Shown piece by piece: positions 2,660-63,848 of a DNA stretch of 64,000 nt. Location of the stretch: NCBI GenBank assembly GCA_024137785.1, contig JAHRHZ010000102.1, forward strand, positions 1 to 64,000, given 5' to 3'. Made by a program: the position numbers and the translations under genes. Positions within the stretch are counted from its first letter, which is position 1. Each line of letters begins with the position of its first letter. The notes below the pieces were generated by a model. The model had not been told where the DNA came from. It saw only the letters and a program-made list of their open reading frames with translations, and did not search any database. This DNA comes from Ginglymostoma cirratum. Lineage: Eukaryota.

Positions 2660-3350
2660 ACGCCAGTGAGTTCATACTTAACTTTGGAGGCTTGTTGCGC
2701 TCTCATTTTTACCCGGGTGTGTTATCTCCAAGAAACGAGTTGCCCATTTAAATCAGAATTAAGGTGAATTTTCTCACGCTTAGGGAGAAGCAAATCTGTG
2801 GAATTCTTGAAAGCAGCGGCTGTCCTGTCTAGGTATATTCAAGGCTGAAACAGCCAGACATTTCGTCATTTCGGGAGTCAAGGGCCACGTGGATAAGGCA
2901 GAACATGGTGTTGAGGATCACCAAATCAGCCATGACCTCGTTAAAAGGTATAGCTGTACTGATTGGCCAGATGGCTTCAATCTGCTGCAATTGCTTATCT
3001 GTCATTTGGAAAATGCTCGGGAACAATGTAGAGGACGAAATAGCAGAACATTCACCAAAGATGACTGCAGTCAAACTGAGTCAACATTGTTTGCTGAAAG
3101 AAAATCTGCACTTGACAATTTTCCAAGAGTTGCCTGCTAATGTTAAAAGCAGAGTTCATAAGGGAAGCCCGTAGATGAAGTGTACTTGAATTTTAGATAG
3201 CGGTCGAAAAAGGGGTCATATAAAAAGTCATAGCACAAGGTCAGAATTCACGGTGTTGGGTAATAAATGAGCATGGATTTCCTATTGTTTAATTAACAGA
3301 AGACAAAGAATCGGGATAAAGGGTATTTTTAAAGTTGAAATATCCAACCC
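2660..3350 (+). mobile_element. Degraded CR1-like LINE fragments (3' end plus RT region)
   Basis: Resembles the other CR1-like ORF2/3'UTR pieces in the window; many stops. Confidence 0.55.
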
Positions 3351-3759
3351 CCCACAACCCATGCACCATACTCTTAAGTACACTATTTGATGGACACTTG
3401 GAGATCTTTTAACTTAACGTAATTCATGGAACCTGCCACATTACACATTACCAGATCTAAATTAGCCACATCCCACATCCTACCCGTAATGCATCTTTTG
3501 CCTCTTTGAACAGTTATGGAAACGTTTTTCTCTGAAATTTATCACCTTCATCGAAAAGGGCTTTATGGTGAAGGAAAAATCGTAAACCAATCTTTACTTG
3601 GCACAGATTTATTCACAGAGTGCAACATTACAGGTATGCAGTTCCTGACTCCACTCATTGTCTGTAAGTGTCTTGTTATCAGTTCTCCAGTCACCAAAGA
3701 ATGTGTACATAATATTTGATAAAAAATGGGCAACTACAGTGAAGGCCACTAAAACATTT

Positions 3760-3990
3760 ATCATCTGTGTGGCTGCCAAGATGTCTCAGTAAGTGTCTCA
3801 GACTGATTGAATCCTTTCCCACACTCAGAACAAATGCATGGTTTCTCTACCGTGTGAATTCGCTGGAGAGCAGACGGGAAGACTGACGAGATCTCTTCCA
3901 ACACTTGGAGCATTTGATCGACCTCTCCTAAGTGCGATCTCGCTGGTGTGTCAGCAGATAGGATGTTTGAGTGAACCCTTTCTACACAAA
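3760..3990 (-). pseudogene. C2H2 zinc-finger gene fragment
   Basis: Translation LQRIHTVEKPCICSECGKGFNQS matches the H-T-G-E-K-P linker and CxxC; frameshifted. Confidence 0.75.
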
Positions 3991-4009
3991 AAGCAATTAT
4001 AGAGTTCGA

Positions 4010-4470
4010 GAGATATTCAGCGCAGAAACAGAGCCTTTGGTTCAACTAGTCCATGCCGACCAGATATCAAAAATTAATCTAGTCCTGTCTGCCAGCATTT
4101 GGCCCTTATCCCGCTAAACCCTTCCTTTCCATGTATCCATACAGATGCCTTTTAAATGTTGTATTTATACCAGCCTCCACCATTTCCTGTGTCAGTTCAT
4201 TCTTTACACACACCATTCTGCGTGTCAAAACATTACACTCTACGTCCCTTTAAAATCTTTACCCTCCAACCTTAATTCTATAACCTCAAGTTTGGACTCC
4301 CCTACCCTGGGAAAAAAGACCGTATCGCTACCTCTCATGATTTTATTAACTTCTATAAGGTGACCCCTCAGCCTCCAACATAAATAGCCCAGTTTATTCA
4401 GCCTCTCCCTCCAGCTCAACTGCTGAAACCCTGGCAACATCTTTGTAAGCCTCTTCTAAACCTTTTCATC
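4010..4470 (-). mobile_element. CR1-like LINE 3' end
   Basis: ORF2 C-terminus ERLNKLG...RLRGHLIEVNKIMRG followed by 3'UTR. Confidence 0.8.
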
Positions 4471-4800
4471 TTTACTTGAGCAGAGAGAATAGAATTGAAT
4501 GCAATATGTGAGGTTTCGTATGTGGGTATTGACGTGGTTAGTGGGTGCAGAGAAGAACATCCTCTTTATCTCGCCAGTTTCAATTGTGAAAATATCGGTT
4601 TTAAAGCAGTGTCAGAGGAAATTGTCTCTTTCTGTGCATTTTCACTGGAAATGTTCAGCTGTGAACTGTCCGTCTTTACAAAAGCCGTATTTGACTTAAG
4701 TTCTCACTGAGTCACATTGAGATAGAAAAAAAGCATCAAGTTTCTGTGATCGGGTGTTTAAGTACATGAACATGTGGATAGGGACAGAATCAGCCTGTTT

Positions 4801-4874
4801 GGCGCTGTGCCTTATTTAGTTAAAGTGCCCAGCTAATAAACAGGAGATCGTTGTTTGCGTCCCAATAATGCCTA
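4801..4874 (+). pseudogene. tRNA-Thr(AGU)-derived, degenerate
   Basis: GGCGCTGTGCCTTATTTAGTTAAAGTGCCC...AAACAGGAGATC...TGCCT; paralog of 34397-34470. Confidence 0.75.
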
Positions 4875-5401
4875 CAGCTCAGATTGAGGGTATCTTGTCT
4901 AAACTTCTTGCAAATAGCACCAGTTGCTTGATTCTTCGAGGTGGCTTGCTTCTTACATTTATACTCAATGCATTATTATTCCTCTGCTCCCGATCCAGTT
5001 GTCTGAGCTTTACCCAAGTGGCTGTTTTGTTTGTTGCTGTTTTGTGAACTGTAACAATTAACAATTGTCAGCTAATCAGAGAGAGAAATTTTGATAAATA
5101 TGCCGATTTGACAGATAAAGCTGATAATTTCGCCTAATATTATATTATTGAAATACATAACTAACCTAGTTCAAATTAACGATCTGTGGACCCGAAAGGT
5201 TACCTCTCTTTCTCTCCACAGATGCTGCCAGGCCTGCTGAGTTTCTCGGTCAATTCCTGTTTCTCTTTCAGACTTTGAGCATCTGCAGTTCTGTTAACTT
5301 GAATAATTTCTGGGACAAAACAGTACATCTACAGGCTCCACAGCTTCTTTCTCGTTCCTGAAAATCAGTCATCACAATAAACGAGCAGAATAGAACTGCC
5401 A

Positions 5402-21001: not shown

Positions 21002-21205
21002 GATAAAAGGTACTGCAGATGCTGGAGAATCCGATACAACAAGGTGTGGGGCTGGATGAACACAGCAGACCAAACAGCATCATCAGAGCAGGAAAGCTTG
21101 ATGATACAGGCCGAGACCCTTCATCAGAAATTTCAGAAACGTCAAGCTTTCCTGCTCCGATGATGTTGCTTGGCCGGCTGTGTTCATCCAGCCCCACACC
21201 TTGTC
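21002..21205. mobile_element. Fold-back insertion of two inverted Penelope termini with a 16-bp TSD
   Basis: Arms of about 55 bp at 21039-21093 and 21140-21204 are near reverse complements; ATGTCTTAACATCCAA (20986-21001) / ATGTCTGAACATCCAA (21206-21221). Confidence 0.85.
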
Positions 21206-21437: not shown

Positions 21438-23296
21438 CCTACCGTATGAGTTGTTAATTCCCGACCCAAAATGTCTGTCATTCTCCTTTTGGCCCCTGAC
21501 CCTTCCTTGGAGTGAACTCGGCAGATGTGATCTTAGTGTGACTGAGTTTCCCGTTTGCTTTGAAGGAGTAAAGACGAGCGTTTCAAACCTTAAAAGGGCA
21601 ATGGCATCAGTACGAACTTAGGACTGAAGTGAAATGGAAAATTAAGTTAAGAATTGACCCAGTATAGGTGCGATTGCGGAGATTTAAGTACCTATTTCAG
21701 AATGGAAAAGAATGCCATTGTCTTCGTCAGTTTTCCAATGCATTTGAAGATGAGCACACGTTTTTTGCAGCCTCATCTGGCTTCACAATTCCATTGCATC
21801 ACATCACCCAGAAGGTAAGAGTCAGGCAAATAGAGACGCAGAAGGAGAAAAACACCTTCAGTGCACGTGCAATGACAGATAAAGTGCTGAGGAGACACGC
21901 AGCACGGTGAGATGAAGCGAGATTATTTATGTGAAAGGGTTCCTTACATAACCTATGTTACATGAAGACTCCCCTACATTGGAAAAATATATTTCCTTCC
22001 ATGAAACTCTGATGAATAACTAAATATTTGCCTCGCTACAGCACAATGCTTTGAGGCAGTGACGTAATGTCTTCTGTAGCAGTGTGGCCTTGTGAAAGGA
22101 CGCGAGGACTATCAACCGAATTCAATGCACTAAAGGATACCTATGAGATGTAAAATGTATTTGCTGCTCCTGTAAGTTGATTTCAATCGCTTTATCCTCT
22201 GTCTTCCTCAGTTTCCTGCTTCCAGTAAGCACTTCAAACCCGAAAAATGTATCATGTGTTTACACTTCCACGCTTTATTGTAACCACCCCCCACCCGAGC
22301 TGACACATGGACGATTGACAGATTGGCCGTCTCTGAGTCTCTCACTCTGGCATTACCTGAATGGTAATGTGCAATTTACCTGATCCACAGAACACAGTGC
22401 AGCACGTTCCCACGTTGATTCAGAGAGCGCCGTTCTCCCATTGACATGCACATGCTGTGCAGATATGGTTCGTTTGTGTAAATATAACCCTTGTCTAACT
22501 TTTCAAATTCTGCTGATCTGATTCTGATTTCACACAGAATCACAAATTTGTCACAGCGCTTACGTAGACTATGCAGCCCAGCTTAGCTGTGCCCATTCTC
22601 CACAATGAGTGCATTGGTATACCTTTTAGTGTCATTCTCTTGACTTCTCCCTGGAACTCAGTGCTACTTTGAACATAACGAACTAATTCACTTTTCAATA
22701 ATTTTATTGAGCCTGCTTTTTGTCACAATCAGACAGTGATTACAGATCCTGGTCACTCCCTGAGTGAAAACATTGTTTCTCATGTCACTTTTACTTCTTT
22801 TCCCAATCACTTTAATTCTCTGCCTAATTGTTCAAGATCCTTTCACACATGGGAGCATTTTCTCCTTGCTGACTCTGCGTAGACCCCTCATGACTTGGAA
22901 AGCTTCAAATAGACCCATTTTAACCCTTCGGTTCTCCAAGGAGAACTGCCACAATTTTCCAATCTATCTTCACTGCTGACATTCCACATACAGAGCACCA
23001 TTCATGTGAACCTGTTCAGCTCTATCTCCACTCACTTCGCGTACCCTTTTACTGACATTATCCACCCAAATCATTGTGATAGCCCAAGTGGAGCATAGCT
23101 CAACGTCAGACTGCGTGGATAAATAATCTGAATGAATTGTTTTGACTTTCAATACATGCGTTTCTGGGCCATGCTCACGACAAAGACACCTCTGCTCCAG
23201 AAGCTCAATCCTATTTCAAGAAGCCCAACTTCATGAAGTGCTGCCCAATTTCAAAAAGCTGATCGGGAGGCCTGGAAATCTAAAATCAAACAACCA

Positions 23297-23355
23297 GAGC
23301 TCGTCCGACATTTGAATCCAGGACCTCACACATTCTGGTTGACTGCAAATGAGCC
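23297..23355 (-). pseudogene. tRNA-Pro-derived, internal deletion removing the anticodon
   Basis: GGCTCATT...AGAATGTGTGAGGTCCTGGATTCAAATGTCGGACGAGCTC; retains AGAATGTG as in the 63760 intron. Confidence 0.65.
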
Positions 23356-24379
23356 AGTAAAACTCTTGCATTTCTACCATGGAACCAGGTGTGAATCAGA
23401 AGACCGTTTCAAGAACATCTTCCCATTCTGTCTCCCTGCTCCCGGGCGGTATTGTTACTCCCTTGCCCTGGGACCGAGCACTCGCCACTGGTGGCACAAA
23501 CTATTTTCTTCCACTTGCAAACAGTTTTGGGAGAGAGAGGCGCGCATGCACTCTTCTGATCCCTCGCAAATTCTTGAGGGGCGGTCACTGACACACAAGA
23601 CACGCAGGAAATTATCAACTTTGGTTGGGAACTTCCGACAAATGTCTGTCATCCGAGACAGAGAAAGATGCTGAGCTGCTGAAAAAGAGAGAAATGAACA
23701 CCAGAGATTCTTCTCTCAGGTAAATCAGCGTGAATTATTTTTGTGCAGCCTGATTGGTGTTCAGAATTCGTCTTCACACAGCAAACCTGCGTAAAAACTT
23801 TTGCAACGCGGCCATCGGTTTCTTTGCTTCTTTGGGCAGGAGTTAATATCTGACGCCAGAAATCCCAGATTAGGAGCATCCGAATAGAACTCTCACTCAT
23901 GGCGTCAGTCCTGTGCAAAAAGAATCTGTTAAGCACATCGATCCCGCGGAGAGTACCTGTCACTTTTATCTCACTGTGGTTATTCAGGAGTGTTGATATC
24001 TGTCCTAATAATGGCGCCTGTGTTGCCATGCTGTCTCCGATAGGCTGATCCATCACTTGATTTATTATTGTCATGATCCTCTTGTTGTTCACAACTTTCC
24101 ATTTCATCGGGAGGAGCCTGTTGTCTGAAACAGCGCAGAGAATTAATGCAGGGAGTCCAGAGCATCGAAAACACTGCAATTAATGCGTTTCAACCTCATT
24201 TGTTTTGTACGGAGGTTTCATCGGATTGCTTGTGCTAACATCCTGAGATATCTGTTTTCGTTATCAACAAGTGCTTCCGTTTGCTCTATCCTGACTTCAG
24301 GAAGTCCGAACTCATTGAACACCGTTTTTTTGAGCGGTAAGCTGATCGGGAAATTTGGCAAAACAGATAGAAGCAATAA

Positions 24380-24468
24380 GGGATCATCTAGGATTTGGGC
24401 CCGGGACCTCTTGTATGTCCACTCTGCACAACCCCAAAGCAAGATTCATACCACTAAACCAACGCGCC
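24380..24468 (-). pseudogene. tRNA-Pro(UGG)-derived with a 17-nt intron (24416-24432)
   Basis: GGCGCGTTGGTTTAGTGGTATGAATCTTGC TT TGG G [GTTGTGCAGAGTGGACA] T ACAAGAGGTCCCGGGCCCAAATCCTAGATGATCCC. Confidence 0.85.
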
Positions 24469-25508
24469 AAAACGACCAGGAAGACCTTGCGACAAATGAG
24501 CCATTGCCACCAATTTGATCCCAGCCCTGAACCAGCTGAGACTCCCTCACAATGAAGCGCATTCCACGTTGCTCCTGGAATTCAAAAGAGCAAAGAGCTT
24601 CAAGAATATCTTCTCATTTTGTCTCCCTGCTCCTGAAATAGTTTATAAAGTTCGGGCTCACCGTTAATGTGAAGAAGTGCGGTCAGGCTGTGGTTTCCGC
24701 TCCTGTTGTTCGATAAAGATCACTGCAGCTGTTTGAGGTGAAAGGAAATGAATTACTGTCGGTTGGAAATATTTCTTTCCGAACTCATTGTCACTCTGCT
24801 GCAACAAGAGGAGCTGGAAACGCCTGCAAATTGCAAAATAAATTGGGTGTATATAGGTTAAGTGATAAAAGTTGAGTATAATATTATTAACACGGCGCTG
24901 TCACCAACTGAAAGAAGATGCTGCCAAGAGGGAGGCGGCTGTGTGTCCAAACCCCATGGTGAACAGTCGGTGTTTTCCTTTGCACACTAAGGGAGCCGAG
25001 CAGTCTCTCCAAGACAATGGGCACACCAAATCCCGAAACATTATCCTCGTGTAAAAGTGACAGCAAATTTGAAACCAATCAAAAACAAGACTTTGATCAA
25101 GCTGCATCGTCGCCAACAACCTCCATCCTCGCATCGACTCCAGGACGGATCCAGGACTTATTCTGGACTCTCTTTCAGGTACAACGAGAGAGGAAGGATC
25201 TGAGAGGGAAGAAACAACTGACGAGATTCCTCTATCCGGATATTGTTCGGTTAATTCAGACACCAAAACACAATATTTCTCCCAATTCGCCAAGAAAAGC
25301 ATCATGCATATCATTAATAGAAATATAGAATCCCCAGAGTTGCTTAACTCGAGGCCAGACACGAAAGTGCCTGTGGTTGTCATGCACTGCAAAGACACTT
25401 TGGGATCTCAGACAGACTTCGATTTTAAAATGAGCCGCGTTCACAAGATCTAGAAGATTTTCATGAAAAAAGGCATACAGGAAGAGAGTACACCGCTGCA
25501 GATAACAA

Positions 25509-25593
25509 TGGCTCGCCTGGGACTTGAAACCTCAGCCTTTCACCGGTGCCACAGTGACCCGAAGCGAGAATCATACCGCTCGACGAACGAGCC
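25509..25593 (-). pseudogene. tRNA-Pro(CGG)-derived with a 13-nt intron (25545-25557)
   Basis: GGCTCGTTCGTCGAGCGGTATGATTCTCGC TT CGG G [TCACTGTGGCACC] G GTGAAAGGCTGAGGTTTCAAGTCCCAGGCGAGCCA. Confidence 0.85.
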
Positions 25594-26379
25594 AGCTTCA
25601 GCTTTCATTTATCATCTCGGTGACACTCATGCAGTGATATTTTCCCAACCTCGGATATCGGAGACTGGGTTCAAGTTCCATCTGCTCAAGAGCTGTGTAA
25701 TAACATCTTTGAACAGGTTGATCATTTTTTTAAAAAATCCCAGTTCGGGCAGTGAAAGCAACAAACGAACAGTTTCTTCCCATTCTGTCTCCCTGTGCCC
25801 GGGCTGCTGCTCTTTGCTACTTTCCCCGACGACAGGGCTCTCTTCAATCGCAGATGGATTAAATCATTTCCCTCCACGGGCAGGCTGTGCTTGAGGATGA
25901 TATCCGTTTTACAGCTCCTTCTTCAACGCTGGAAGGGCGAAGAAGCAGAAGAGACAGAATCAGATGTCAGGAAATTATTAACAACGGTTGTGAACTTTCA
26001 TCAAATGGCATTAATCAGAGACAGAGAGAAGTATGCAAAGCTGCTAGAAAAGAGAGAAGTCTAAATTGGGGATTATTCCGTTTAGAAACTTAATATGGGA
26101 TCTTTCTGTGCAGTCTGTTTGATTTCAGGTTTCGACTTCACACAACAATCTTGCAGAAAAAAAAAATTACAAGCAGACATCGGTTTCTTTGCTACTACCC
26201 GGCAGCAGTTAATTTCTGACACCAATAGTCCCAGATTAAGAGAATTGGAGTGAAACACTTATTCATTGAGTTTAATCCACAACGGACTAGAGCTGCGGGG
26301 CTGCAAAGAGTTCAACATGGAAGGGAGAGTTAAAAATGAGCCATTGTTTCTTCCCCACTCGCCTACTCTGTCTCAGAGA

Positions 26380-26510
26380 CAGTGGGGAATGTCAGAAGTC
26401 AAATGACACCAGGTTATAGTCCAACAGGTTTATGTGAAATCACACGCTTTCACAGCGCTGCTCCTGCATCAGTTGAAGTGAAACTTTCCACCGGCATCTC
26501 CACGTCACAG
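26380..26510 (-). mobile_element. Short repeat of a second Penelope-terminus-like family with a degenerate hammerhead; similar copy at 61765-61890
   Basis: CTGATGCAGGAGCAGCGCTGTGAAAGCG..AAACCTGTTGGACTATAACCTGGTGT. Confidence 0.55.
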
Positions 26511-27653
26511 CGACAGGGAGAGTGACGTCATAAACCCATGGCGTCATTCCCGCGAAAGAAGAAGCCGTTCAGCCCATCGAGTCCACGGCGACTCTCTGTC
26601 CCTTGTATCTCTCTGAGGTTATTCACTTTCGCTGATGGCTGTCCTAATAATGGTGAACTGTGCCTGTGCCGTGACTTTTTCTCCGACATGATGATCCTCT
26701 TGTCATTCAGTACTTTTCATTTCACCGGGACGATGCTGCTGTCTGAAACAGGAGGGCGTCCTGCGCGTGGAACACACCTCAACCGATATGTTTCAAATTC
26801 AACAATTTACTCCTGCCATGTCAGAGAACAGCTTTAACAAATCAGGTCATTGGAGACCGACAGATAGCAGGAGAAGACCATTCAGACCTTCACAAGTTTC
26901 TCACCTCACCAGTGTAAACTTGGCCCGTATATCAATATGAGATATTTATTTCAGATGCATGGTGTTACGGGAAGCAGATCAAAATGCATCAAAATGATGA
27001 GGTCTGAATTTGATGAGATCGAGGCCAGTCTGAGATCCCTGGGCGTCTTTGCACTGAAGATATCGCACATGGGGAAGAAGGAAGCAAGATGGAAACAAAC
27101 TCTGCCCATAACCAACAGACATCGCCACCGTGGTGAAAAGTTCGATATAAATGCAACTTTCTGTATCTTCAATGTTCTAAAATCCCATCCCCCGTTTACT
27201 GATCCTGATCTGACTGTTTGCTTCATCCAGACACTAGCGCCATGAAATCTCTATTTAATGTTCTTTGCACTAAACAGAACAATCCCGGGCTTTGGGGTCT
27301 CTCCACAAATCTAAACTCCCTCAGCCTTGGGCATGATGAAGCTTGAGAATTGCGTCGCGAATTTGGGAACAAAATTCATATGATAGCTGGAAACATGGAA
27401 GTGAAACAAAACAGAAATCCAATCTGCAGCTACGTGAATCTTCCAAAACTTTTTGTAATCCAACTGGAAGAAAATGATATAATAATCTGTCAACGGAGAG
27501 AACCCGGTGCCAGGAGAATGGGCCAACAGAACCGTCCGAGGAGCAGGGAGATTGAGAAGAAAATATTCTTGAAACTTTTCTGCTGCTTTGAATTCCGAGA
27601 ACAATGTGAAATTTACCGCACTCTGTGTGGGGGCAGAGTGACGCTACGCAGGT

Positions 27654-27743
27654 GGCTCGTTGGTGTGGTGGTATGATCCTTGCTTAGGGTTATGCACGTT
27701 GTTGATATGCAAGAGGTTCCGGGGTCAAATCATGAACGAGCCT
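27654..27743 (+). pseudogene. tRNA-Pro(AGG)-derived with an 18-nt intron (27690-27707)
   Basis: GGCTCGTTGGTGTGGTGGTATGATCCTTGC TT AGG G [TTATGCACGTTGTTGATA] T GCAAGAGGTTCCGGGGTCAAATCATGAACGAGCCT; T-run downstream. Confidence 0.9.
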
Positions 27744-27989
27744 GTTTATTTATTTTCACTATCACTTTCGCAAAAAAACAAACTTCCTTCAATGAAGCCA
27801 GGCAATCCTACTCTGAATGAATCCGCAGATAGCAAGAACTGCAAATTGTAGAGTCAGAATCGTCACAGTGTGGTGCGAGAGGAACACTGTTGGTAAGACA
27901 GCATCAGAGTAGTAGGAAAGTTGATGCTTCGGGCCTGGACCAATCATCAGAGTGAATCCTGCAGCTGCATTATTTCTCAATTATATGCA

Positions 27990-28510
27990 TATGAACGTTG
28001 AGGAAGCTGGGACGGGAAGCAATTCGAGACAGCGCCGAACAAGTTCACGTGAATGGTGACGTGTGTGAGCAAAGTCAGCAATAGAGATTGGAAAGTTGAG
28101 ACAGTTTTGCTTGGAGAACGGAAAACTGGTTTGATTGAAGCTTCCCAAGTCATGAGGAGTATGAACAGCAAATAAGGGGCTGAAAATGCTCACACGCCTG
28201 AAAGGATCGAGAACGATTAGGCATAGATTTAAAGTCATGAGGGAAACATGTAAGACTGACAGGAGGAAGAGCGTTTTTTTACACAAGAAGTAATGAGGGT
28301 CGGACAATGACTGTCTGACTGCGACAGAGACAGATTCATTCGCCTAAAAACGGAATTCGTTGGTTATTGTTAAAAGTAACAATATGCAGAGTTACAGGGA
28401 GAAGACAAAAGAGACACACATTTACTCATTTTGGATAGCCGGCACAGCCGAGGCTGGCAGCAAGGCCTTCGGTTGCATTGTGACAAATTTTGTGATTCTG
28501 AATGGAATCA
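27990..28510 (+). mobile_element. CR1-like 3' fragment carried within the duplicated cassette (copies at about 30270-30910, and inverted at 22530-23150 and 63000-63400)
   Basis: Shared CACGCCTGAAAGGATCGAGAAC.ATTAGGCA.AGATTT. Confidence 0.7.
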
Positions 28511-28691
28511 GATTTCGACCAACAGAACATGGGAACTTAGACAACTGTTATATTTACACAGCCGCGACACGTCTGTGCAACAGAATAATACACAACAACA
28601 GTGAAGATCTCTTGACATCATTCTTGAAGGTGCATTCCACACACCAGATGTAAAGCTGAATCCTTGACGAAGCATACCCTCAGTGCCCGAT

Positions 28692-28763
28692 AGCAAAGTG
28701 GTGTAATGGGAGCATGCTGGGCCCTCAACCCTTGGGTGGAGGAATCAAAACCATTCTGTCCTA
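28692..28763 (+). pseudogene. Initiator tRNA-Met-derived, anticodon mutated
   Basis: AGCAAAGTGGTGTAATGGGAGCATGCTGGGCCCTCAACCC...GAATCAAAACCATTCTGTCCTA; iMet-type GATCGAAACC T-loop relic. Confidence 0.8.
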
Positions 28764-29947
28764 TTTGCATCATGTGCATCGCGTTTTGTTCTGTGCTTTG
28801 ATCAATTTTCCGCTTCCCATAATTTCATGTGTGTGAAATTAAATATCTCATATTGATACACGGGCCAAGTTTAGACAGGTGAGGTTACACGCTTGTGAAG
28901 GTCTGAAAGGTCTCCTGCTATTCTCTGTCGGTCTCCTCTGAACTGAATTGTAAATCCTTTTCTCTGAGAAAGGAATAAACTGGGCAAGTTGAAACACATC
29001 AGTTACACATTTTTCCATGCTCTGCAGTAATTCCCCACGCCATTTCAGGTGTTAATTTTTAGAAGATCAGCATGTCGGAGACAGTATCACGGCACAGACA
29101 CTACTATTAGGGCCAGATATCACCGATTGTGAAAAAACCTCATAGAGTTACAAACGACAGAGAGTCGCCGTGCACTCGATGGGCTGAACGGCTTATTTCT
29201 GCACGTGAATGACACCACGGGTTTATGACGTCACTCTCCCTGTCTCTGTGACGGAGCGGGTGAGGGAGAAACAATGGCTCATTATTAACCCTCCCTTCCG
29301 CGTTGTACTGTCTGCAGCTGCGTAGCTCAGGGCCATTGGGCATGTCTCTCAGTGCGTGAGTGTTTCACTTGGATTCTCTTAATCTGGGACTGTTGGCGTT
29401 AGAAATTAACTCCTGCTCCGGAAGCAACAAAGAAACCAACACCCGAGTTGCAAAAGACTGTCTGCGGGATTACTGTTCGAAGACGAATTCTGAACATCAA
29501 ACAGGCTGCACAAGAAAATAACTTATTTTAATTTAGCCGAGGGAAGAGTCTCCTGTGTCCATTTCTCTCTTTCCCGCTAGCTCACCATCTTTCTATCTCT
29601 CGGATAACAGATGTTGAGAGAGAGTTCACAATTTGATAATTTCCTGCGTATCCGTGTAACTGACTCACCCACCCCAAGTGACTGAGAGGGTGGAGAAGAT
29701 CGAAAGGGCACTGCCCTCCCACAGCACTGCTTGCAGGCAGAAAAACAATGGTTTAGTAATCAGCCAAATGAGATTCACCCGGTCCTGATGAAATGGACAA
29801 ACAGCACCGTCCCACAGCAGAAAGACAGAATAAGAAGATTATGTTCTGGAAACTGTTTGCTCCTTGGAATTCCTGAAGCAGTATGGAATATATGTCACAC
29901 AAAGAGAATCTCAGCTGTCTGAGGAGTCGACTGTTTGGCCTGCAGGT

Positions 29948-30037
29948 GGCTCGCTGATCCAGTGTTATGATTCTTGCTTTGGGTCTCACAGCATTTAGAA
30001 GTGCCAGAGGGCCCTGTTTCATATCTCACACAACCAC
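29948..30037 (+). pseudogene. tRNA-Pro(UGG)-derived with an 18-nt intron (29984-30001)
   Basis: GGCTCGCTGATCCAGTGTTATGATTCTTGC TT TGG G [TCTCACAGCATTTAGAAG] T GCCAGAGG; 3' end degenerate. Confidence 0.8.
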
Positions 30038-31064
30038 ACTTGTTTTGTCAAAATATCCAATTAATTATCTCAAAAAGCTGCTTCGTGAAATGAGGTTGAA
30101 CTGCTTGACTTTGGGATAAAGTAGAAGTACCTTTGCATCGAACCCGGCAAAGGGGTACACTTGTTCAAACGAAGAACAAGAGTTTTAGGATGTTCATACG
30201 GCAATTCGACTCTGGACGAATCCTCCGGCTAACATAGTGCTCAATTCTGAGTGCGAAACTTCAGAAAGCAGGAACGTGAAATGATTGGAGGTAGCGCTGA
30301 AAAGGATCGTGCGAATGGTGGTCAAAGAGGAGACTGGAAGAATACAACAGGCCAGGCTGCATCAAAACAATTATTTCTGGACAAGGTGCTGTGAGTATAG
30401 AGGATCGAAGTTAGGTACAAATTTTGAAGGTTTAAAATGCACCTGTCTGTCAGAAATGAAGATGGATTGGAAGTTGAGACAGTTCTCCTTGGGGAACAGC
30501 AGGCTAAAAGGTGGTCCGATTGAAGCATCACAAGTCACTCGGGGTCTAGACAGTGGAAATAAAGGCGTGAAAGTGCTACCACACCACGCCTGAAAGGATC
30601 GAGAACAATTAGGCAGAGATTTGAAGGCATTAGAAAAAGAAGTAAAAGTGACATGAGGAAGAGCGTTTTCACACAAGGAGTGGTTCGGGTCGGTAAATCA
30701 CGATCTGACAGCGACAGGGACAGATTCAATCAACACAAAATGGAATTGGATTCTTATGTTAAAAGTGCCTGTGCAGATGTTACAGGGAGAAGGCAAAAGA
30801 TCGATACTAAAAGAGATAATCTTTTGCTTATTGTGGAGACGCAGCAGAGCTGAGGTAGGGTGCGTGTCCTCCGTCTGAGCTGTGACAGGTTTTGTGATTC
30901 TGAGTGAAATCATAGGTCGACGAATAGAATGTGGGAACTTAGACAGAGGTTAAAGTTACACAGCTGTGACACATCTGTGTAACAAAACAACAGTGAAGAA
31001 CTTTTGACATCATACTCGAATGGAAATGCTGCAGTACAGATGAAAAGCTGAAGACTGGCCTGAG

Positions 31065-31141
31065 AGCATTGTGGGTCAAGGTAGCAGAAGCGTGCTGGGC
31101 CTATAACCCGGAGGCTGATTGATCAAAACCATCCTCGGCTA
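31065..31141 (+). pseudogene. Initiator tRNA-Met-derived
   Basis: ..GTAGCAGAAGCGTGCTGGGCCTATAACCCGGAGGCTGATTGATCAAAACCATCCTCGGCTA; anticodon reads TAT, insertion near the 5' end. Confidence 0.85.
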
Positions 31142-32399
31142 TTTCTTATGTGTGAGTGTTGCGGTTTGTAGTTGCCTGTGCTGCACATTTTAATCAGCTG
31201 TCTGCTTCCCGCAGCTTCATGTAACTGAAATACATATGTCATGTTGGTTCACTGGCCAAGATCAGACAGATGAGCTAATACACTTTGTGAAAGTCTGAAC
31301 GGTCTTCCCCTGTTCTCAGTCAGTCTGCTCCGAACTGAGTCGTAAAACTTCCTCTCTGAGATGGGAATAAACCAGTGAAGTGGTAATACATTACCCGCAT
31401 TTTTTTTTTCGTGCCTGGCAGTAACTCGCCACGCTGTTTCAGACGTGATTGAGAAAAGGATCAGGATATCGGAGACTGCAGCATGGCACAGATACAGTTC
31501 ACCATTACGAGGGACAGATATACCGATTGTGAATAACTACTGAGAAATACAAGAGGCAGAGAGTCGCTGTGGACTCTATGGGCAGAATGGCTTCTTTCTG
31601 CACGGGAATGATGCCATGGGTTTATGACGCCGCTCTCCCTCTCTCTGTGAGTGAGCGGGTGAGGGAGAAACAATGGCTCATTATTAACCCTCCCTTCAAC
31701 GTTGTACTGTCTGCAGCCCCGCAGCTCAGGGCCCTTGGGGATGAATCTCGTTGCGTGAGTATTTAACTCAGATTCACTTAACGCGGGACTGTTTGTGTCA
31801 GACGTTAACTCCTGCTGTGGTGGTCACAAACAAACGGACGTCCTGTGTGCAGACAAATTCTGAACATCAAACAGGCTGCACAGAAAGATCGCATTTTAAG
31901 TTGCTGAAGAGACTAATCTCTAGTTTCGATTTCTACCTTTCCCAACAGCTCTCCATCCTTCTGTCTGCCTCTGATAAATGTGATTTGATGAAAGTTCCAA
32001 ATCGCCGTTTACAATTTGCTGCACAAGTCTGATTCCACCCCTTCTGCTCTTCCTTCTTCTTTTGTTTGAGAGACAGCGACAAAGTGTATACCATTCCTCA
32101 GCACTGCCTGCCTATGGAGAAAAATGGTTTAATCCCTCTGACAATGGAGAGAGTTCTGTCCCAGGGGAAGGAACAAATAGCTCAGTCCAAGGGACAGGGA
32201 GACAGCACGAGAAGAAGATGCTCGTTGCTGCGTTCATTGAAGCAACGGGGAATAGAATTTTACAAGCATCATGTTCAGGCATGTTATTGCATACCTCTGC
32301 AGCAGATAGAACTTGAACTCTGTCTCCGACATCCAGCTAGGGACACGATCACTGCCTGAGTGGCACCTCATTTATTGTTAAGTGGGCCATCCGTAGACT

Positions 32400-32484
32400 G
32401 CGTCATTGGTCTTGTGGTCTGATTCTCACATCAAGTGGTCGTTCGCAATGTGAGAAGTTGCTGGCTTGAATCCTGCATGAGCCG
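32400..32484 (+). pseudogene. tRNA-Pro-derived (paralog of the CGG copy) with a 13-nt intron (32436-32448)
   Basis: GCGTCATTGGTCTTGTGGTCTGATTCTCAC AT CAA G [TGGTCGTTCGCAA] T GTGAGAAGTTGCTGGCTTGAATCCTGCATGAGCCG; flank 32270-32380 mirrors 25600-25720. Confidence 0.7.
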
Positions 32485-33722: not shown

Positions 33723-34396
33723 ATTTGCTGACTCATTGTACTTTTAGTCATTAACTGGCATCACTGGCTCAGCAGCATTTCTTCAATCAACCGTATTGCT
33801 GTGGGTCTGGAGTCACATGTCGGCCAGACCAGGTAAGGGTGGCAGTTTCCTTCCTTAAAGGACATTAATGAAACGGATGAGTTCTTCCGCCAATCGATTG
33901 CATGGATTGCATCGCCTCCCCTGTGAGGAGAAGGAAAGGGGCTGTGAGGTAACTTATTGTGTCCCAAATGATATTCAAGCTGACATGAAACAAAGAACTG
34001 CGAATGCTGGAAATCTGAAACAAAAACAGGAATTTATAGAGAAACCCAGCAGGCCTGGTAGCATCTGTGGAGAGAAAGAGAGGTAACCTTGGAACTGGGT
34101 TAGTTATGCACTTCAATAATGTAATGTTAGGCGAAATGATCAGCATTATCAGTCAAATCAGCATATTTATCAAAAACTTCTCTCTTTGATTAGACTACAA
34201 TTGTTAATTGTTACAGTTCACAAAACAGCAACAAACAAAACTGCCAATTGGGTTAAGCTCAGGCACCTGGAGCAGGAGCAGAGGAATAATAATGCATTGA
34301 GAATAAACGCAAGAAGCAAGCCAACTGTACCTTCAAAAATCACACAACAAGCACTATTTGCCGAAACTGAGAAAACATACCCGCAAACTGAGCCAT

Positions 34397-34470
34397 AGAC
34401 ACCGCTCGAACTCGAACCCAGGATCTTCTGTTCACTGAGCAGGCGCTTTAACCAACTGAGCCACAGTGCC
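34397..34470 (-). pseudogene. tRNA-Thr(AGU)-derived, relatively well preserved
   Basis: GGCACTGTGGCTCAGTTGGTTAAAGCGCCTGCTCAGTGAACAGAAGATCCTGGGTTCGAGTTCGAGCGGTGTCT. Confidence 0.85.
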
Positions 34471-35289
34471 ACAAGGTAGAAACCCACTCCATTCCACATG
34501 TTCATGTACTTCAACGCTTGATCACAAACGGTTTTTCATTTCAATCTCAATGTTATTCAGTGAGAATTTAAGTCAAACATCGCTTTTGTAAAGACGGACA
34601 GTTCACAGCTGAACATTTCCAGTGAAAATGCACGGAAAGAGACAAACTCCTCTTACACTGCTTTAAACCGATATTTTCACAATTTAAACTGGCAGGGTAA
34701 AGAGGATGTGTTCATCCTCTCTCATCCCATTAACCATGTTAATACACACAGATGAAACCTCGCAAACTGCATTCAGTTCTTTTCTCCCTGCTCGAGGAAA
34801 GTTGAAAAGGTTTAGAAAAGGTTTACAAAGAAGTTGTCAGGGTTGCAGCAGTTGAACTGGTAGGAGAGGCTGAATAAACTCGGGCTATTTACACTGGAGT
34901 GTTGGAGGCTGATGGGTGACCTTTTAGGAGTTAATAAAATCATGAGGGGCAGTGATAGAGTCTTTTTTTCCCCAGGGTAGGGGAGTCAAAACTTGAGGTT
35001 TTCGGTTTTATGTTTGATGGTAAAGCTTTTAAAGGGGAGTAGGATGCAGTATTTTGACAGGCAGGACGGTTTGTGTATGGAATAAACTGACACAGGAAAT
35101 GGTGGAGGCTGTTGCAAATACAGCATTTAAAAGGCATCTCGATCTACATGTATAGGAAGGGTTCAGCAGGATATTGGCCAAATGTTGGCAAACAGGACCA
35201 GATTCAGTTTGAATATCTGGTTGGCATGGACGAGTTGGACCAAAGGCTCTGTTTCTGTGCTGAATATCTCTGTGACACTAGAATTGCCT

Positions 35290-35520
35290 TATGTGTACAA
35301 AGGGTTCACTCAAACATCCTACCTGCTGACAAACTAGCGAGATCACACAGGAGAAGTCGATCAAATGTTCCAAGTGTTGGAAGAGATCCAGCCAGTCTTC
35401 CAGTCTGCTCTCACACCAGTGAATTCGCACGGGAAAGAAACCATACATTTGTTCTGAGTGGGCGAAAAGAATCAATCAATCATCCCACTTGCTGAGACAT
35501 CTTGACAGCCACACAGATGA
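35290..35520 (+). pseudogene. C2H2 zinc-finger remnant (inverted paralog of 3760-3990)
   Basis: CACCAGTGAATTCGCACGGGAAAGAAACCATACATTTGTTCTGAGTG = HQ*I.TGKKPYICSE. Confidence 0.65.
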
Positions 35521-36545
35521 TAAATGTTTTAGTAGCCTTGACTTTAGTTGTTTATTTTTATCAAATGTTATATACACATTCATTGATGACTGGAGAACTG
35601 TTAACGAGACACTTACAGACGCAGAGTGGAGTCAGGAAATACATACCTGTAATGTTGAACTCTGTAAATAAATCTGTGCTAATCCTTTCCGATTTGTCCT
35701 TCACTATAAAGCCTTTTTTTCATGGAGGTGAGAAATTTCAGAGAAAAATGTTTCCTTAACTGTTCAAAGAATCAGATGATGCATGAGGGGTAGGATGTGG
35801 GATGTGGCTAATTTAGATCTGGTAATGTACAATGTGGCAAGTGTAATGAATTACATCAAGTTAAAAGATCTCTTAGAGAACAATGCCCATCAAGTAGTAT
35901 ACATAAGAGGAGGGTGGGTGAGTTGTGGGAGGTGGTGTGGACTGAAGTAGCATTCGGCAAACTAATGGCACTAATGGCCCTTGGCCCTGAAGGCTCACAT
36001 TCAAGGATTCCAAAACAAGTCGATCCAGATTGCGAGGATGCGTTGGTTGTAATTTTGCAAACATGCTTAGATTGTGGAATAGACCCAGCAAATTTGAAAA
36101 TGTCAGTTTATTCAAAAAGTCGGGCTAACTGCTGGAATGTGAGAGAAACAACATGAGACAGAGTTTCAGTCAGAAATGTGCACTCACAGCCCTGCCCTCA
36201 ATTCACGCTGATTTCTGGAGGTTTCAGTGTTTGACTGGGGTAGACCAGGTCAGCAGCCATACTACACCAGGTTATGGTCCCAATTGTGGTCAATTGAAAT
36301 TACAGGGATAAGCTCATTGCCGTTTGCCCTCAAAATGTCAGCACACAAGGCTATGGGCCAAATGCTAAAAACTGGGACGAGAATAGATGGTTGTTTGATA
36401 ATCTGCACTGACATGATGAGCCGAATGGTCTTCTTTCATGCCGGAAAAATTCGAGAATGGAGAAATTGATCTGCAGTGAAAATGGTCACAAATAAAAATG
36501 CAAAAGCAGTGTTGTTGCTAAAATGTACCATGCCTACTGTCCCTT

Positions 36546-54352: not shown

Positions 54353-54448
54353 TGCTCCGGGTGAGGTTGGAGCTCACAGCCTCGGCATTTCACGCGCCTC
54401 TGTGCCGTCATGGAAGGACCGCGCGCTCACCGATTGCGTCACTGGAGC
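54353..54448 (-). pseudogene. Intron-containing tRNA-Ile(UAU)-derived copy, anticodon reads TCC
   Basis: GCTCCAGTGACGCAATCGGTGAGCGCGCGGTC CT TCC A [22 nt] A TGCCGAGGCTGTGAGCTCCAACCTCACCCGGAGCA. Confidence 0.85.
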
Positions 54449-61350: not shown

Positions 61351-63759
61351 AATGACTGTGAATAAAACAATGGCAAGTTCCTGCAGAGAAACAGGTGGCT
61401 AATTTTTAGAAGCAGGATAGGCGCTGTAAGGTAATCTATTTTATCCCACACAATAATCAAGCTAACATGTAACAAATAACTATGGATGCTGGAAATCTGA
61501 AACCAGAAAAAAGCGAATTGATAGACACTTTCAGAAGGTTGTTGTTGTTGTCCTCAAAAAAGGTTGTCCCAACCGTTACATTCCTTACTTGTCATTTGTC
61601 TGTGGATGGTAACATTTCCAGAATCGTGTACAATGACATTCAAATTTGTCTGACAACTATCAACAGCTGTTCTTTCATTACCATCCCGCTCTGTGTTTTA
61701 ACATCACGTAATTTGACAGTTCATCTTACTTTTCCAAACGTTTAAAACAATCCTATTCGTGGTTACGATGTGGAAGCGCTGGTATTGGACTGGTGTGGAC
61801 GCGAACAGAAGTCTCGCAACACCGGGTTACAGTCCAGTGAGTTTATTTGAAATGACAAGCTTTTGAGTGCTGCTCCTTCTTCATGATAAAATATACCTTC
61901 ATTGCAACAGTACATTCTACATTCAAAGAGGACAATGAGAGTGATCAATGACATCAGAGTGTGGGAACCTCGATGTTGCAGTGACCACAGTGTAACTGAG
62001 TTTCACGTTTACTTTGAGGTAGGGCAGTTTGAATCTAAGACGAGCGCTTTATACCTAAATAAAGACAATGTCACCACTTGAAGTGAGGATGGCCAAAATG
62101 AAGTGAAAGATTAAGTTAAGAAATTGTTCAGTGCAGACGCAATAGCAGAGATTTAAGGAAATAGTCCAGAATACACAAAAAACCCCAGTGTGTCTTTGTC
62201 AGTTTCCCATCGGTTTTGAAGATGAGCAAGCATATTTTCAGCCTGACTCTTGTTTCACAATCCCATTGCGTCACAGCACCCAGAAGGTAAGGGTCAGATA
62301 AATGACATGCAGAAGGTGAAAAGTACATCACGACACGCACAATGACAGATAAAGTGCTAAGGAAGCACGCAACACGCTGATATGGAGCGTACTTATTTAT
62401 GTGAAAGGCTTTTGTATATAATCCCTATTTCATAAAGACTTCCCTCACATTGGAAAAAAAATGAATTTCCGTCCGTGTAACTCTGATGAACAGCTAAATA
62501 TTTGCCTTGATACAGCAAGACTCTGTGAGTCAGTGACATTCTACCTTCTGTAACAGCGTGGTCTGGTGAAAGCGTGCTGCCCATCAACCGGAACTAAATA
62601 CATCAGAGGTTTCCAAAGTTCTGAAGAATGTATTTACTGCTCCTGCCGTCCCCTGTTACCCTATATCACCTGAGGTTCCCGCTTCCAGTAAACACTTCAA
62701 ACCCGGACAAATCTATTATATATTTCACATAGCTTTTGTCCCCAACTAAACTGTCAGAGGTATGATGAACCGATTGGCCTTCTCTGGCTCTCTCACTGTG
62801 GCATGACCGAAATGGTAAAGTGCATTGTGTCTCATCCACAGAATACCCTGCAGTATTTCCCCACGCCGAATCAGACAGCACCTTCCTCCCTGTGACATTA
62901 ACATGTTGTGTGATAATTTGTCGAGCAATGTGTCCCGCTGTGTCAATATCACCTTTGTCTAACTTCCCACATTCTGATGGTCAAACACTGATTTCACTCA
63001 GAATCACAAATTTATCACAGTGCAGATGGAAGCCATGCAGCCCTCCTCAGCTGTGCCTGTTCTCCACAATGAGGAAATGGGTCATTCTCTTGACGACTTC
63101 CTGTAACCCTGCACGTTGTTACTTTTAACGTAACCATTGAATTCGTTTTTTAATAACACGATCGAACCTCACTCTTTGTCGCAATCAGTGATTACAGTGA
63201 TTACAGACTCTAACCACTCCCTGTGTGAAATCATTTTACCTGATGTCACTTTTGCTTTTTCAAATGAACCTCTGCCTAATCACTCTCGATCCTCCCATGC
63301 ATGGGAACATTTTCTCCTTATTGATTCTGTGTCGACCCTTCATGACTTGGAAAACTTCAGACAGACCAGCTTTCAACCTTCCAGTCGATCTTCATCGCTG
63401 ACATTCCACACAGGCGATTCGATTTATTACTGTCATGTTTCTCTTGTTATTCACAACTCCGTTTATCACTTGAAAGACGCTGCTGCCTGAAACAGCGTGG
63501 GGAATTATTGCAGGGCGCCCTGTGCATGGAACACACTGCAACTAATTCGTTTCAACTTCACTGGCTTTTTGTGGAGGTTTCATTCAATGTTCGATGGCAT
63601 GGGCAAACATCATGAGGCATGTTTTGTGTTTTGCTTTGCCCTGTTGAACGCAATGGCACCTTCTGTCTCATTCGTCCTTCAAAAAGTCCGACCTGATTGA
63701 ACACAGTCTCTTTTTCGGAAAGCTGATCAGCGATTTGGCAAAACCCAAAACGGCAATCA

Positions 63760-63848
63760 GGGCTCATCCAGGAATTGACTCCAGGACCTCTCACACATCC
63801 ACATTCTACCATCCCCAAAGCACGAAGCATGCCCTAGACCAACAAGCC
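63760..63848 (-). pseudogene. tRNA-Pro(UGG)-derived with an 18-nt intron (63796-63813)
   Basis: GGCTTGTTGGTCTAGGGCATGCTTCGTGC TT TGG G [GATGGTAGAATGTGGATG] T GTGAGAGGTCCTGGAGTCAATTCCTGGATGAGCCC. Confidence 0.85.

Follow-up and report, generated by a model that had tools for sequence, protein, structure and literature searches.

The question raised by this locus is whether a short insert in the anticodon loop of a decayed proline tRNA gene is the relic of a spliceable intron, and whether the intron base facing the wobble position of the anticodon follows that position when it changes. The gene, a decayed tRNA-Pro(AGG) copy at 27654..27743 on the forward strand, lies in a window of 64,000 nucleotides, which is the whole stretch of DNA that was analysed (contig JAHRHZ010000102.1, positions 1 to 64,000) and comes from the 4.36-gigabase genome of the shark Ginglymostoma cirratum. 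An 18-base insert at 37/38 (27690..27707) separates G37 (27689) from U38 (27708) and directly follows the anticodon-loop positions 32-37 (27684..27689), among which U32 is 27684, A34 is 27686 and the AGG anticodon is 27686-27688. Counted back from the 3′ end of the insert, A at −3 (27705), G at −4 (27704), T at −5 (27703) and T at −6 (27702) can form all four pairs with positions 32-35. [quoted passage not shown]

Pro gene copies in the window

The five other copies were located with a profile search that left the position of the insert free. A decayed Pro(UGG) copy at 24380..24468 on the reverse strand holds a 17-base intron relic (24416-24432), and two further decayed Pro(UGG) copies, at 29948..30037 on the forward strand and at 63760..63848 on the reverse strand, hold 18-base relics (29984-30001 and 63796-63813, respectively), the latter copy having lost one D-loop base; all three retain four of four pairs. 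The decayed Pro(CGG) copy at 25509..25593 on the reverse strand has a 13-base relic (25545-25557) with two of four pairs, those at 32 and 34, and the most decayed copy, at 32400..32484 on the forward strand, belongs to the CGG lineage with an anticodon that is now CAA and has a 13-base relic (32436-32448) in which A32 and C at −3 are unpaired. A covariance model built from the six copies recovers the same six together with a half-lost seventh at 23297..23355 on the reverse strand, of which the 3′ half alone is recognisable and whose upstream flank is homologous to that of the 29948 copy. A small tandem duplication on the reverse strand at 24469-24510 has placed a second leader, with the first bases of the gene, some 35 bases upstream of the 24468 copy.

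On re-reading, every base that the initial annotation gave for −3 to −6 in the six copies proved right. Position −3 is A in five of the six, the exception being the 32400 copy with C at −3 and A32; −4 is G in four of the five copies with A at −3, and −6 is T in four of five. At −5 a T stands opposite A34, G, G and A opposite the three U34 bases and G opposite C34. Across the six copies 20 of the 24 cells at 32-35 are pairable, a figure that shuffled inserts equal in 0.024% of 100,000 trials (p 0.00024) in a test that ignores relatedness. The caveat of shared ancestry that accompanied the claim does apply, as the segment with approximate ends at 27500..27615 on the forward strand has homologues ahead of every one of the six genes, at a distance of 100-230 bases. 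In addition, the 24468 and 63848 copies share flanks with each other, as do the 25593 and 32400 copies, and both the 27654 and the 29948 copy share flanks with the AGG-type loci L007 and L011; on both sides the window copies have kilobase flanks in common with paralogues, and they have no SINE tail. Judged by these flanks, the six copies are dead paralogues of one ancestral gene in approximately three groups, not six independent cases.

The flagged 27654 gene is a pseudogene, with 12 exon differences from the intact intronless gene L032 that include A14, U54 and three T-stem bases. The five window copies without an indel differ from the intact gene at 12 to 22 exon positions and the sixth carries the D-loop deletion; none of the six retains an intact mature tRNA body, and none is called by ARAGORN or Rfam at threshold. 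A relaxed ARAGORN threshold gave 384 calls, mostly spurious, which were discarded. Folding of whole decayed copies did not recover the helix, the predicted probability of the 32-35 helix being 0.00-0.01 in the folded window precursors and 0.00 in the flagged copy. Since the window copies are broken and the helix is not predicted in them, their pairing is likely inherited rather than maintained. Two RNA runs over 24300-30100 gave zero depth in the four bins with Pro copies and no joint, one run being poly(A)-selected and about 24% read and the other contributing 4 reads.

Decayed tRNA genes are scattered through the window, among them two Ser genes above the Rfam threshold and weaker relics of Val, Thr, Ala, Glu and others. 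A 271-base intergenic piece of the window has at least 40 genomic matches (40 scored of 86 candidates), nearly all on ten small contigs, which makes the window part of a multi-megabase, much-duplicated tRNA cluster. Paralogous kilobase blocks with decayed tRNA genes occur in direct and inverted orientation at 71-81% identity (28074-29607 and 30449-31977; 21527-22929 and 61981-63381; 3347-5292 and 33994-35933). The repeats of the window resemble what we take to be the shark SINE and LINE tails HE1 and HER1, and at 21039-21204 two copies of a retroelement tail form a 166-base imperfect palindrome with sub-threshold matches to miRNA families. A decayed tRNA gene at 54353-54448 on the reverse strand carries a 22-base insert at 37/38 with C32 opposite G at −3; ARAGORN calls it Gly, and its body looks like what is presumably Ile(UAU), a known intron-bearing isotype. 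No protein-coding or viral context was found by eye in the window or around the intact gene pair on contig C46 described below, where the open reading frames are short or retroelement-like.

The intron-bearing Pro family

Pro genes with a 9-24-base insert at 37/38 were found at 189 or more places in the assembly by a pattern allowing up to two mismatches, against 12 places for Pro genes without an insert, and the reversed-pattern control gave 0 in each case; the two patterns differ slightly, and both counts are lower bounds. Under the exact pattern the figures are 16 and 3, respectively. Insert lengths of 9-24 or 8-30 bases were allowed in the searches, and as the patterns behind the genome-wide counts force the gap to 37/38, the insert position is given by construction for most copies. 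The analysed set comprised 100 of the 189 matches together with the earlier loci, the other 89 places lying outside it; 126 copies were parsed, 124 were distinct, and removal of 12 intronless copies and the very divergent L013:2048-2133 left 111. Base 34 in these is A in 54, U in 43, C in 8 and G in 6, and the insert is 11-24 bases long, with 18 bases in 79 copies. The exons are identified as Pro by the ARAGORN calls for matching intronless genes of the same genome, and hence belong to none of Tyr, Ile, Arg or Leu. The copies occur in three settings, namely as cluster paralogues, as SINE-joined copies and as the isolated C46 pair. In dead copies about 10% of the non-CpG exon positions have changed, and 24-46% of those at CpG sites. 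A separate cluster lineage (L101, L102, L108, L109 and L006:427-514) has G at −3 (U32:G) and a different intron body.

The enrichment of purines at −3, on which the initial annotation had staked its reading, is present in this set: −3 can pair with 32 in 101 of the 111 copies, as it can in five of six in the window and in both genes on C46, and among the 18-base inserts purine/pyrimidine change there is no commoner than neutral exon decay (2.5%, with 1.3% at −4, 4.2% at neutral exon positions and approximately 11% at the median intron position). Base −4 can pair with 33 in 105 copies. The 32-35 helix has a mean of 3.47 of four pairs in register; five shifted registers give means of 1.48-2.08 and shuffled inserts 1.96, and all four pairs are present in 66 of the 111 copies in register against 0-6 in the shifted ones. 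Along the 79 inserts of 18 bases, entropy is lowest at −3 and −4, and this is still so in the 73 that are left after thinning of close paralogues. Still, the conservation signal at −3 and −4 is modest: the unpartnered −1 varies hardly more than they do, the majority base at +4 is just as well conserved, and +6 is also conserved. With T at +4 in 86 and at +6 in 79 of the 111 copies, and with the upstream segment common to the six window copies, the inserts show kinship in their 5′ parts as well, which corrects the initial remark that these differ strongly. The other introns, which are the 12- and 19-base ones on C46 and the 13-base and TTCAATTAG groups, mostly have a purine at −3. The low entropy and low change rates at −3 and −4 suggest to us source genes whose intron bodies varied while these two positions did not.

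TSEN reads the tRNA body, measures out the splice sites and needs a pair between C/U32 and the third-last purine of the intron, by which a 3-base bulge is left at the 3′ site; splicing drops if the A-I pair is unpaired or the helix is too strong, and in animals the exons are ligated by RtcB (PMC10275265, PMC10485636, bioRxiv 10.1101/497545). With U32:A, U33:G or A, a 34:−5 pair and G35:U or C, in a weak helix of the right register, the Pro introns fit these rules.

Two intact Pro(AGG) genes lie on contig C46, divergent and approximately 1.1 kb apart, with introns of 12 and 19 bases that are different in sequence. Their exons differ from an intact intronless gene at one of 72 bases, the variant being common to an intronless UGG gene; T-runs follow downstream, and the two have no flank in common beyond the gene. 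Both have an intact mature tRNA body, and the U32:A(−3) pair is kept in both introns. A search of sequencing runs for this pair returned no RNA run that contains it, a result that has no bearing on expression. For the 19-base intron, which has A34:U at −5, a 6-pair helix with a 3-base bulge is predicted with a probability of 0.83-0.90, whereas the 12-base gene has A34 opposite G and forms no helix in the minimum-energy model; the helix is predicted for the 19-base gene only, with a probability of 0.00-0.01 in the 11 other folded copies. Dead copies decay, yet the C46 exons are intact around two different introns, which argues for selection on this pair. Two intact Pro genes that lack an intron, one AGG and one UGG (changed 30:40 pair), form another divergent pair at L030:1477-1548 on the reverse and L030:2385-2456 on the forward strand; its UGG gene carries the single exon variant of the C46 pair, which is likewise divergent and about 1 kb apart. 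Given at least 189 insert-bearing copies, with two inserts in intact genes, it is predicted that sharks likely splice an isotype outside the four listed for human.

Descent, the wobble base and retroposition

The part of the original claim that saw canonical tRNA introns rather than chance insertions is upheld by the register, by −3 and −4 and by the C46 pair, whereas the tracking of the wobble base is only partly upheld as evidence of selection. The proposed covariation check gives a divided answer when applied to the genome-wide Pro introns. Bases 34 and −5 can pair in 91 of the 111 copies against 54 after shuffling (0 of 10,000 shuffles), with A34 opposite U in 45 of 54 copies, U34 opposite a purine in 36 of 43 and, in the CGG lineage with its 13-base inserts, C34 opposite G in 4 of 5. 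On the other hand, a tree that accounts for descent yields a single independent contrast on supported branches and 7 on all branches. The tree covers 81 of the 111 copies (at most 8 and 11 exon mismatches) in 107 columns, with base 34 and −3 to −6 masked, and sorts them largely into A34/U and U34/purine groups; as 11 of its 78 forks are starred and 47 are open, the contrasts may be undercounted. The per-copy permutation (0 of 10,000) and a 28-row pair count were rejected as covariation tests because they ignore descent, and the rule-based lineage labels misplace a few copies (L090, L111, L129 and L143).

It is quite possible, though it falls short of being likely, that the introns are real and spliceable and the −5/34 match is a lineage marker passed on by descent, with only 32:−3 and 33:−4 mattering. 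Such a reading touches the wobble claim alone and is compatible with real introns. It agrees with the single supported contrast, with one lineage in which A34 stands opposite A or G in all five copies, with the A34 opposite G of the intact 12-base gene, with the copies in which base 34 alone has changed and which mostly retain the parental −5, and with the association of base 34 with −8, which is not its partner (z 4.7, against 6.7 for −5). Three C34 copies of the AGG lineage still have U at −5. In fly reporters, too, a single added pair of the distal helix had little effect (bioRxiv 10.1101/497545). Against it, the three large lineages are each complementary and a swap of their states breaks the pair; the 19-base C46 intron, unlike in sequence, also has A34:U; and by our estimate the chance of three complementary states arising from uniform bases is 1/4 × 1/2 × 1/4, approximately 0.03. 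For the most part the tracking thus appears to go back by descent to two or three old switches of the anticodon, and the complementary −5 that each switch seems to have left is suggestive of compensation, not proof of it.

A further alternative, possible if somewhat doubtful, is that in this species the lineages with 18- and 13-base introns have died out, that the C46 pair alone is still spliced and that the window is an ancient cluster without working members. Searches of the assembly with the exact 5′ exon (9 places) and the near-exact 3′ exon (7 places) found no intact gene with an 18- or 13-base intron and no intact CGG gene of any kind, the best gene of the 18-/13-base lineage being L012 with two exon changes. 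Extinction would also agree with the divergence of the copies from the intact exon, about 10% at non-CpG positions, and with the 80 kb around two cluster loci and beside the window, where the tRNA genes are all decayed or low-scoring. However, near-intact Ser genes, searched for as a control with a 40-base core and at most two mismatches, are scarce too (12 places), which together with the missing CGG gene fits arrays that are absent from the assembly. A second organism whose contigs cover 30 of 30 bins of 24300-30100 at 85% likeness likewise speaks against extinction, as word depth is 865-1036 in four of its intergenic contigs (189-332 bases) and 12-15 in others. Such depths would suit a young array in many copies in that organism, possibly of some tens of near-identical units. 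The window counterparts of these contigs, whose word depth is 60-90 times that of neighbouring contigs, are 24989-25281, 26869-27121, 28392-28723 and 28800-28988. Two other contigs of the second organism join a UGG-type 5′ exon to an 18-base insert and a CGG-type 5′ exon to a 13-base insert, each followed by a Pro 3′ exon and with A at −3, at depths of 12.6 and 11.5; joints at 85% likeness can arise from paralogues, as here.

In our judgement, the insert at 27690-27707 is probably an inherited intron of a Pro tRNA family with precursors that would be cut by TSEN and rejoined by RTCB, a family multiplied in a cluster, carried through anticodon switches, copied back in SINE-joined form and now dead in the window. 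One ancestral intron-bearing Pro gene would have multiplied in a large tRNA gene cluster, and its anticodon would have been remodelled at least twice, with a −5 that in each case came to match the changed base 34. In the working source genes, selection would have preserved a purine at both −3 and −4 and let the rest of the intron drift, cleavage by TSEN at 37/38 would have been followed by ligation by RTCB, and Pol III precursors with a short leader, intron and U-rich trailer would sometimes have returned to the genome as copies fused to a SINE. The window would then be a dead part of the cluster that carries inherited pairing only. That the family goes back to a single chance insertion, never spliced and paired by accident, in a Pro pseudogene or gene that segmental duplication and a tRNA-headed SINE then multiplied is very improbable, since the homology of the 18-base inserts, the one ancestral flank common to the six window copies and the joining of more than half of the copies to a SINE would accord with it, but the intact C46 exons around two different introns, uniform exons beside introns that are diverse except at −3 and −4, the agreement of −5 with each of three anticodons, exact intronless copies with intron-lineage marks, a tRNA-SINE junction unlike that of a single SINE family and the same chimeras made by intronless Pro genes would all be left unexplained.

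Of the 111 intron copies, 57 run directly into a SINE, from a few to about 30 bases past the gene (range −16 to +119), and upstream likeness among the SINE-joined copies stops approximately 7-8 bases before the gene. With their leader, intron and trailer, the 57 resemble precursor RNAs that were retroposed, an indirect hint of transcription by RNA polymerase III; the reading is taken from their anatomy, as target-site duplications of 9 bases or more are scarce (1 of 58 SINE-joined copies). A tRNA-headed SINE family with a fixed head-body junction and a shared 3′ tail does not describe them, given the range of the junction and the tail-less window copies. Intronless precursor-like Pro copies sit on the same SINE at L049, L051, L053, L054, L057 and L153, and retroposition in this genome seems to yield tRNA-SINE chimeras quite generally. 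In L019 and L088 there are 117 bases from gene to SINE, and the trailer crosses an apparent second tRNA-like sequence; these trailers may record read-through of a two-gene transcript.

Intron-lineage marks were sought at 14 intronless Pro places, and in two of them, L031 and L056, the insert is absent exactly at 37/38, yet such marks are present. L031 has C59 and an AGG trailer, as in 16 of 23 AGG-intron copies, where the nine reference intronless copies all have A59 and none C59; L056 has T59 and a TGA trailer, as in 7 of 13 UGG-intron copies. A flank classifier, which in leave-one-out trials placed 35 of 36 intron copies correctly, assigned L056 to the UGG lineage (2.3 against −11.5 bits), placed L050 slightly nearer to that lineage (0.1 against −4.0 bits) and left L031 undecided (−1.5 against −0.1 bits for intronless genes), as the SINE cuts its trailer after 6 bases. 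L031 and L056 may have arisen by retrocopying of precursors that had been spliced but not yet trimmed, or they may stem from sister genes without an intron. It can be tentatively suggested, more as a conjecture than as an expectation, that the Pro intron was gained in sharks and spread by tandem arrays to three anticodons with compensation, so that most Pro tRNA is spliced, and that the 57 unspliced and 2 spliced retrocopies are fossils of germline processing in which splicing can precede end trimming.

Comparison with known tRNA introns

While the flagged 27654 copy is dead, the interest of the locus lies in its family. [quoted passage not shown] Three anticodons, hundreds of dead copies and an intact pair make a natural series for which intron-anticodon pairs TSEN needs, and allow one to ask whether an intron survives an anticodon switch only with compensation, and whether proline decoding or the modification of A34 to inosine depends on splicing. 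A literature search of incomplete coverage, from which absence from print does not follow, found no report of an intron-bearing Pro tRNA in a vertebrate. A shark genomics preprint describes many intron-containing tRNA loci; proline, tRNA-Pro and isotype are absent from its main text, Fig. 3A or the supplements may name Pro, and A-I pairing is not discussed in its available passages.

The chimeras have a counterpart in the U6/L1 and tRNA/L1 chimeras, in which a Pol III RNA stands 5′ of a retroelement through template switching or RtcB ligation (PMC11838501), and the layout here is similar. In contrast, the tRNA/L1 chimeras are described there as mostly antisense halves with target-site duplications, whereas the shark copies are whole sense precursors on a SINE in which such duplications are, as noted, scarce.

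Among tRNA introns, whose lengths span 6-133 bases (PMC4090602), the 11-24 bases of shark Pro lie well inside the range. Budding yeast has a canonical intron in tRNA-Pro(UGG), with 10 intron genes (PMC4090602), so that Pro with such an intron is shared with shark; the yeast introns are fungal and, as stated in that source, in UGG only, and they are likened here by kind, not by homology of the intron, all the more as intron spectra of tRNA genes do not track phylogeny (PMC4090602). The human intron-bearing families are Tyr(GUA), Ile(UAU), Arg(UCU) and Leu(CAA), and the canonical features are an insert at N37/N38, C/U32 paired with the third-last purine and complementarity to N33-N35 (PMC10275265). 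Shark Pro resembles the human four in its short N37/N38 intron, its pair between 32 and the third-last purine, its complementarity to N33-N35, its variable introns and its intronless siblings. It differs in the isotype and its three anticodons, in a U32:A or U32:G pair with weak U:G neighbours, and in that its copies are mostly intron-bearing (189 against 12) and nearly all decayed. Taken together, the sequence comparisons point to real, canonical tRNA introns in an isotype that is not listed for human, with an A-I pair that is itself textbook.
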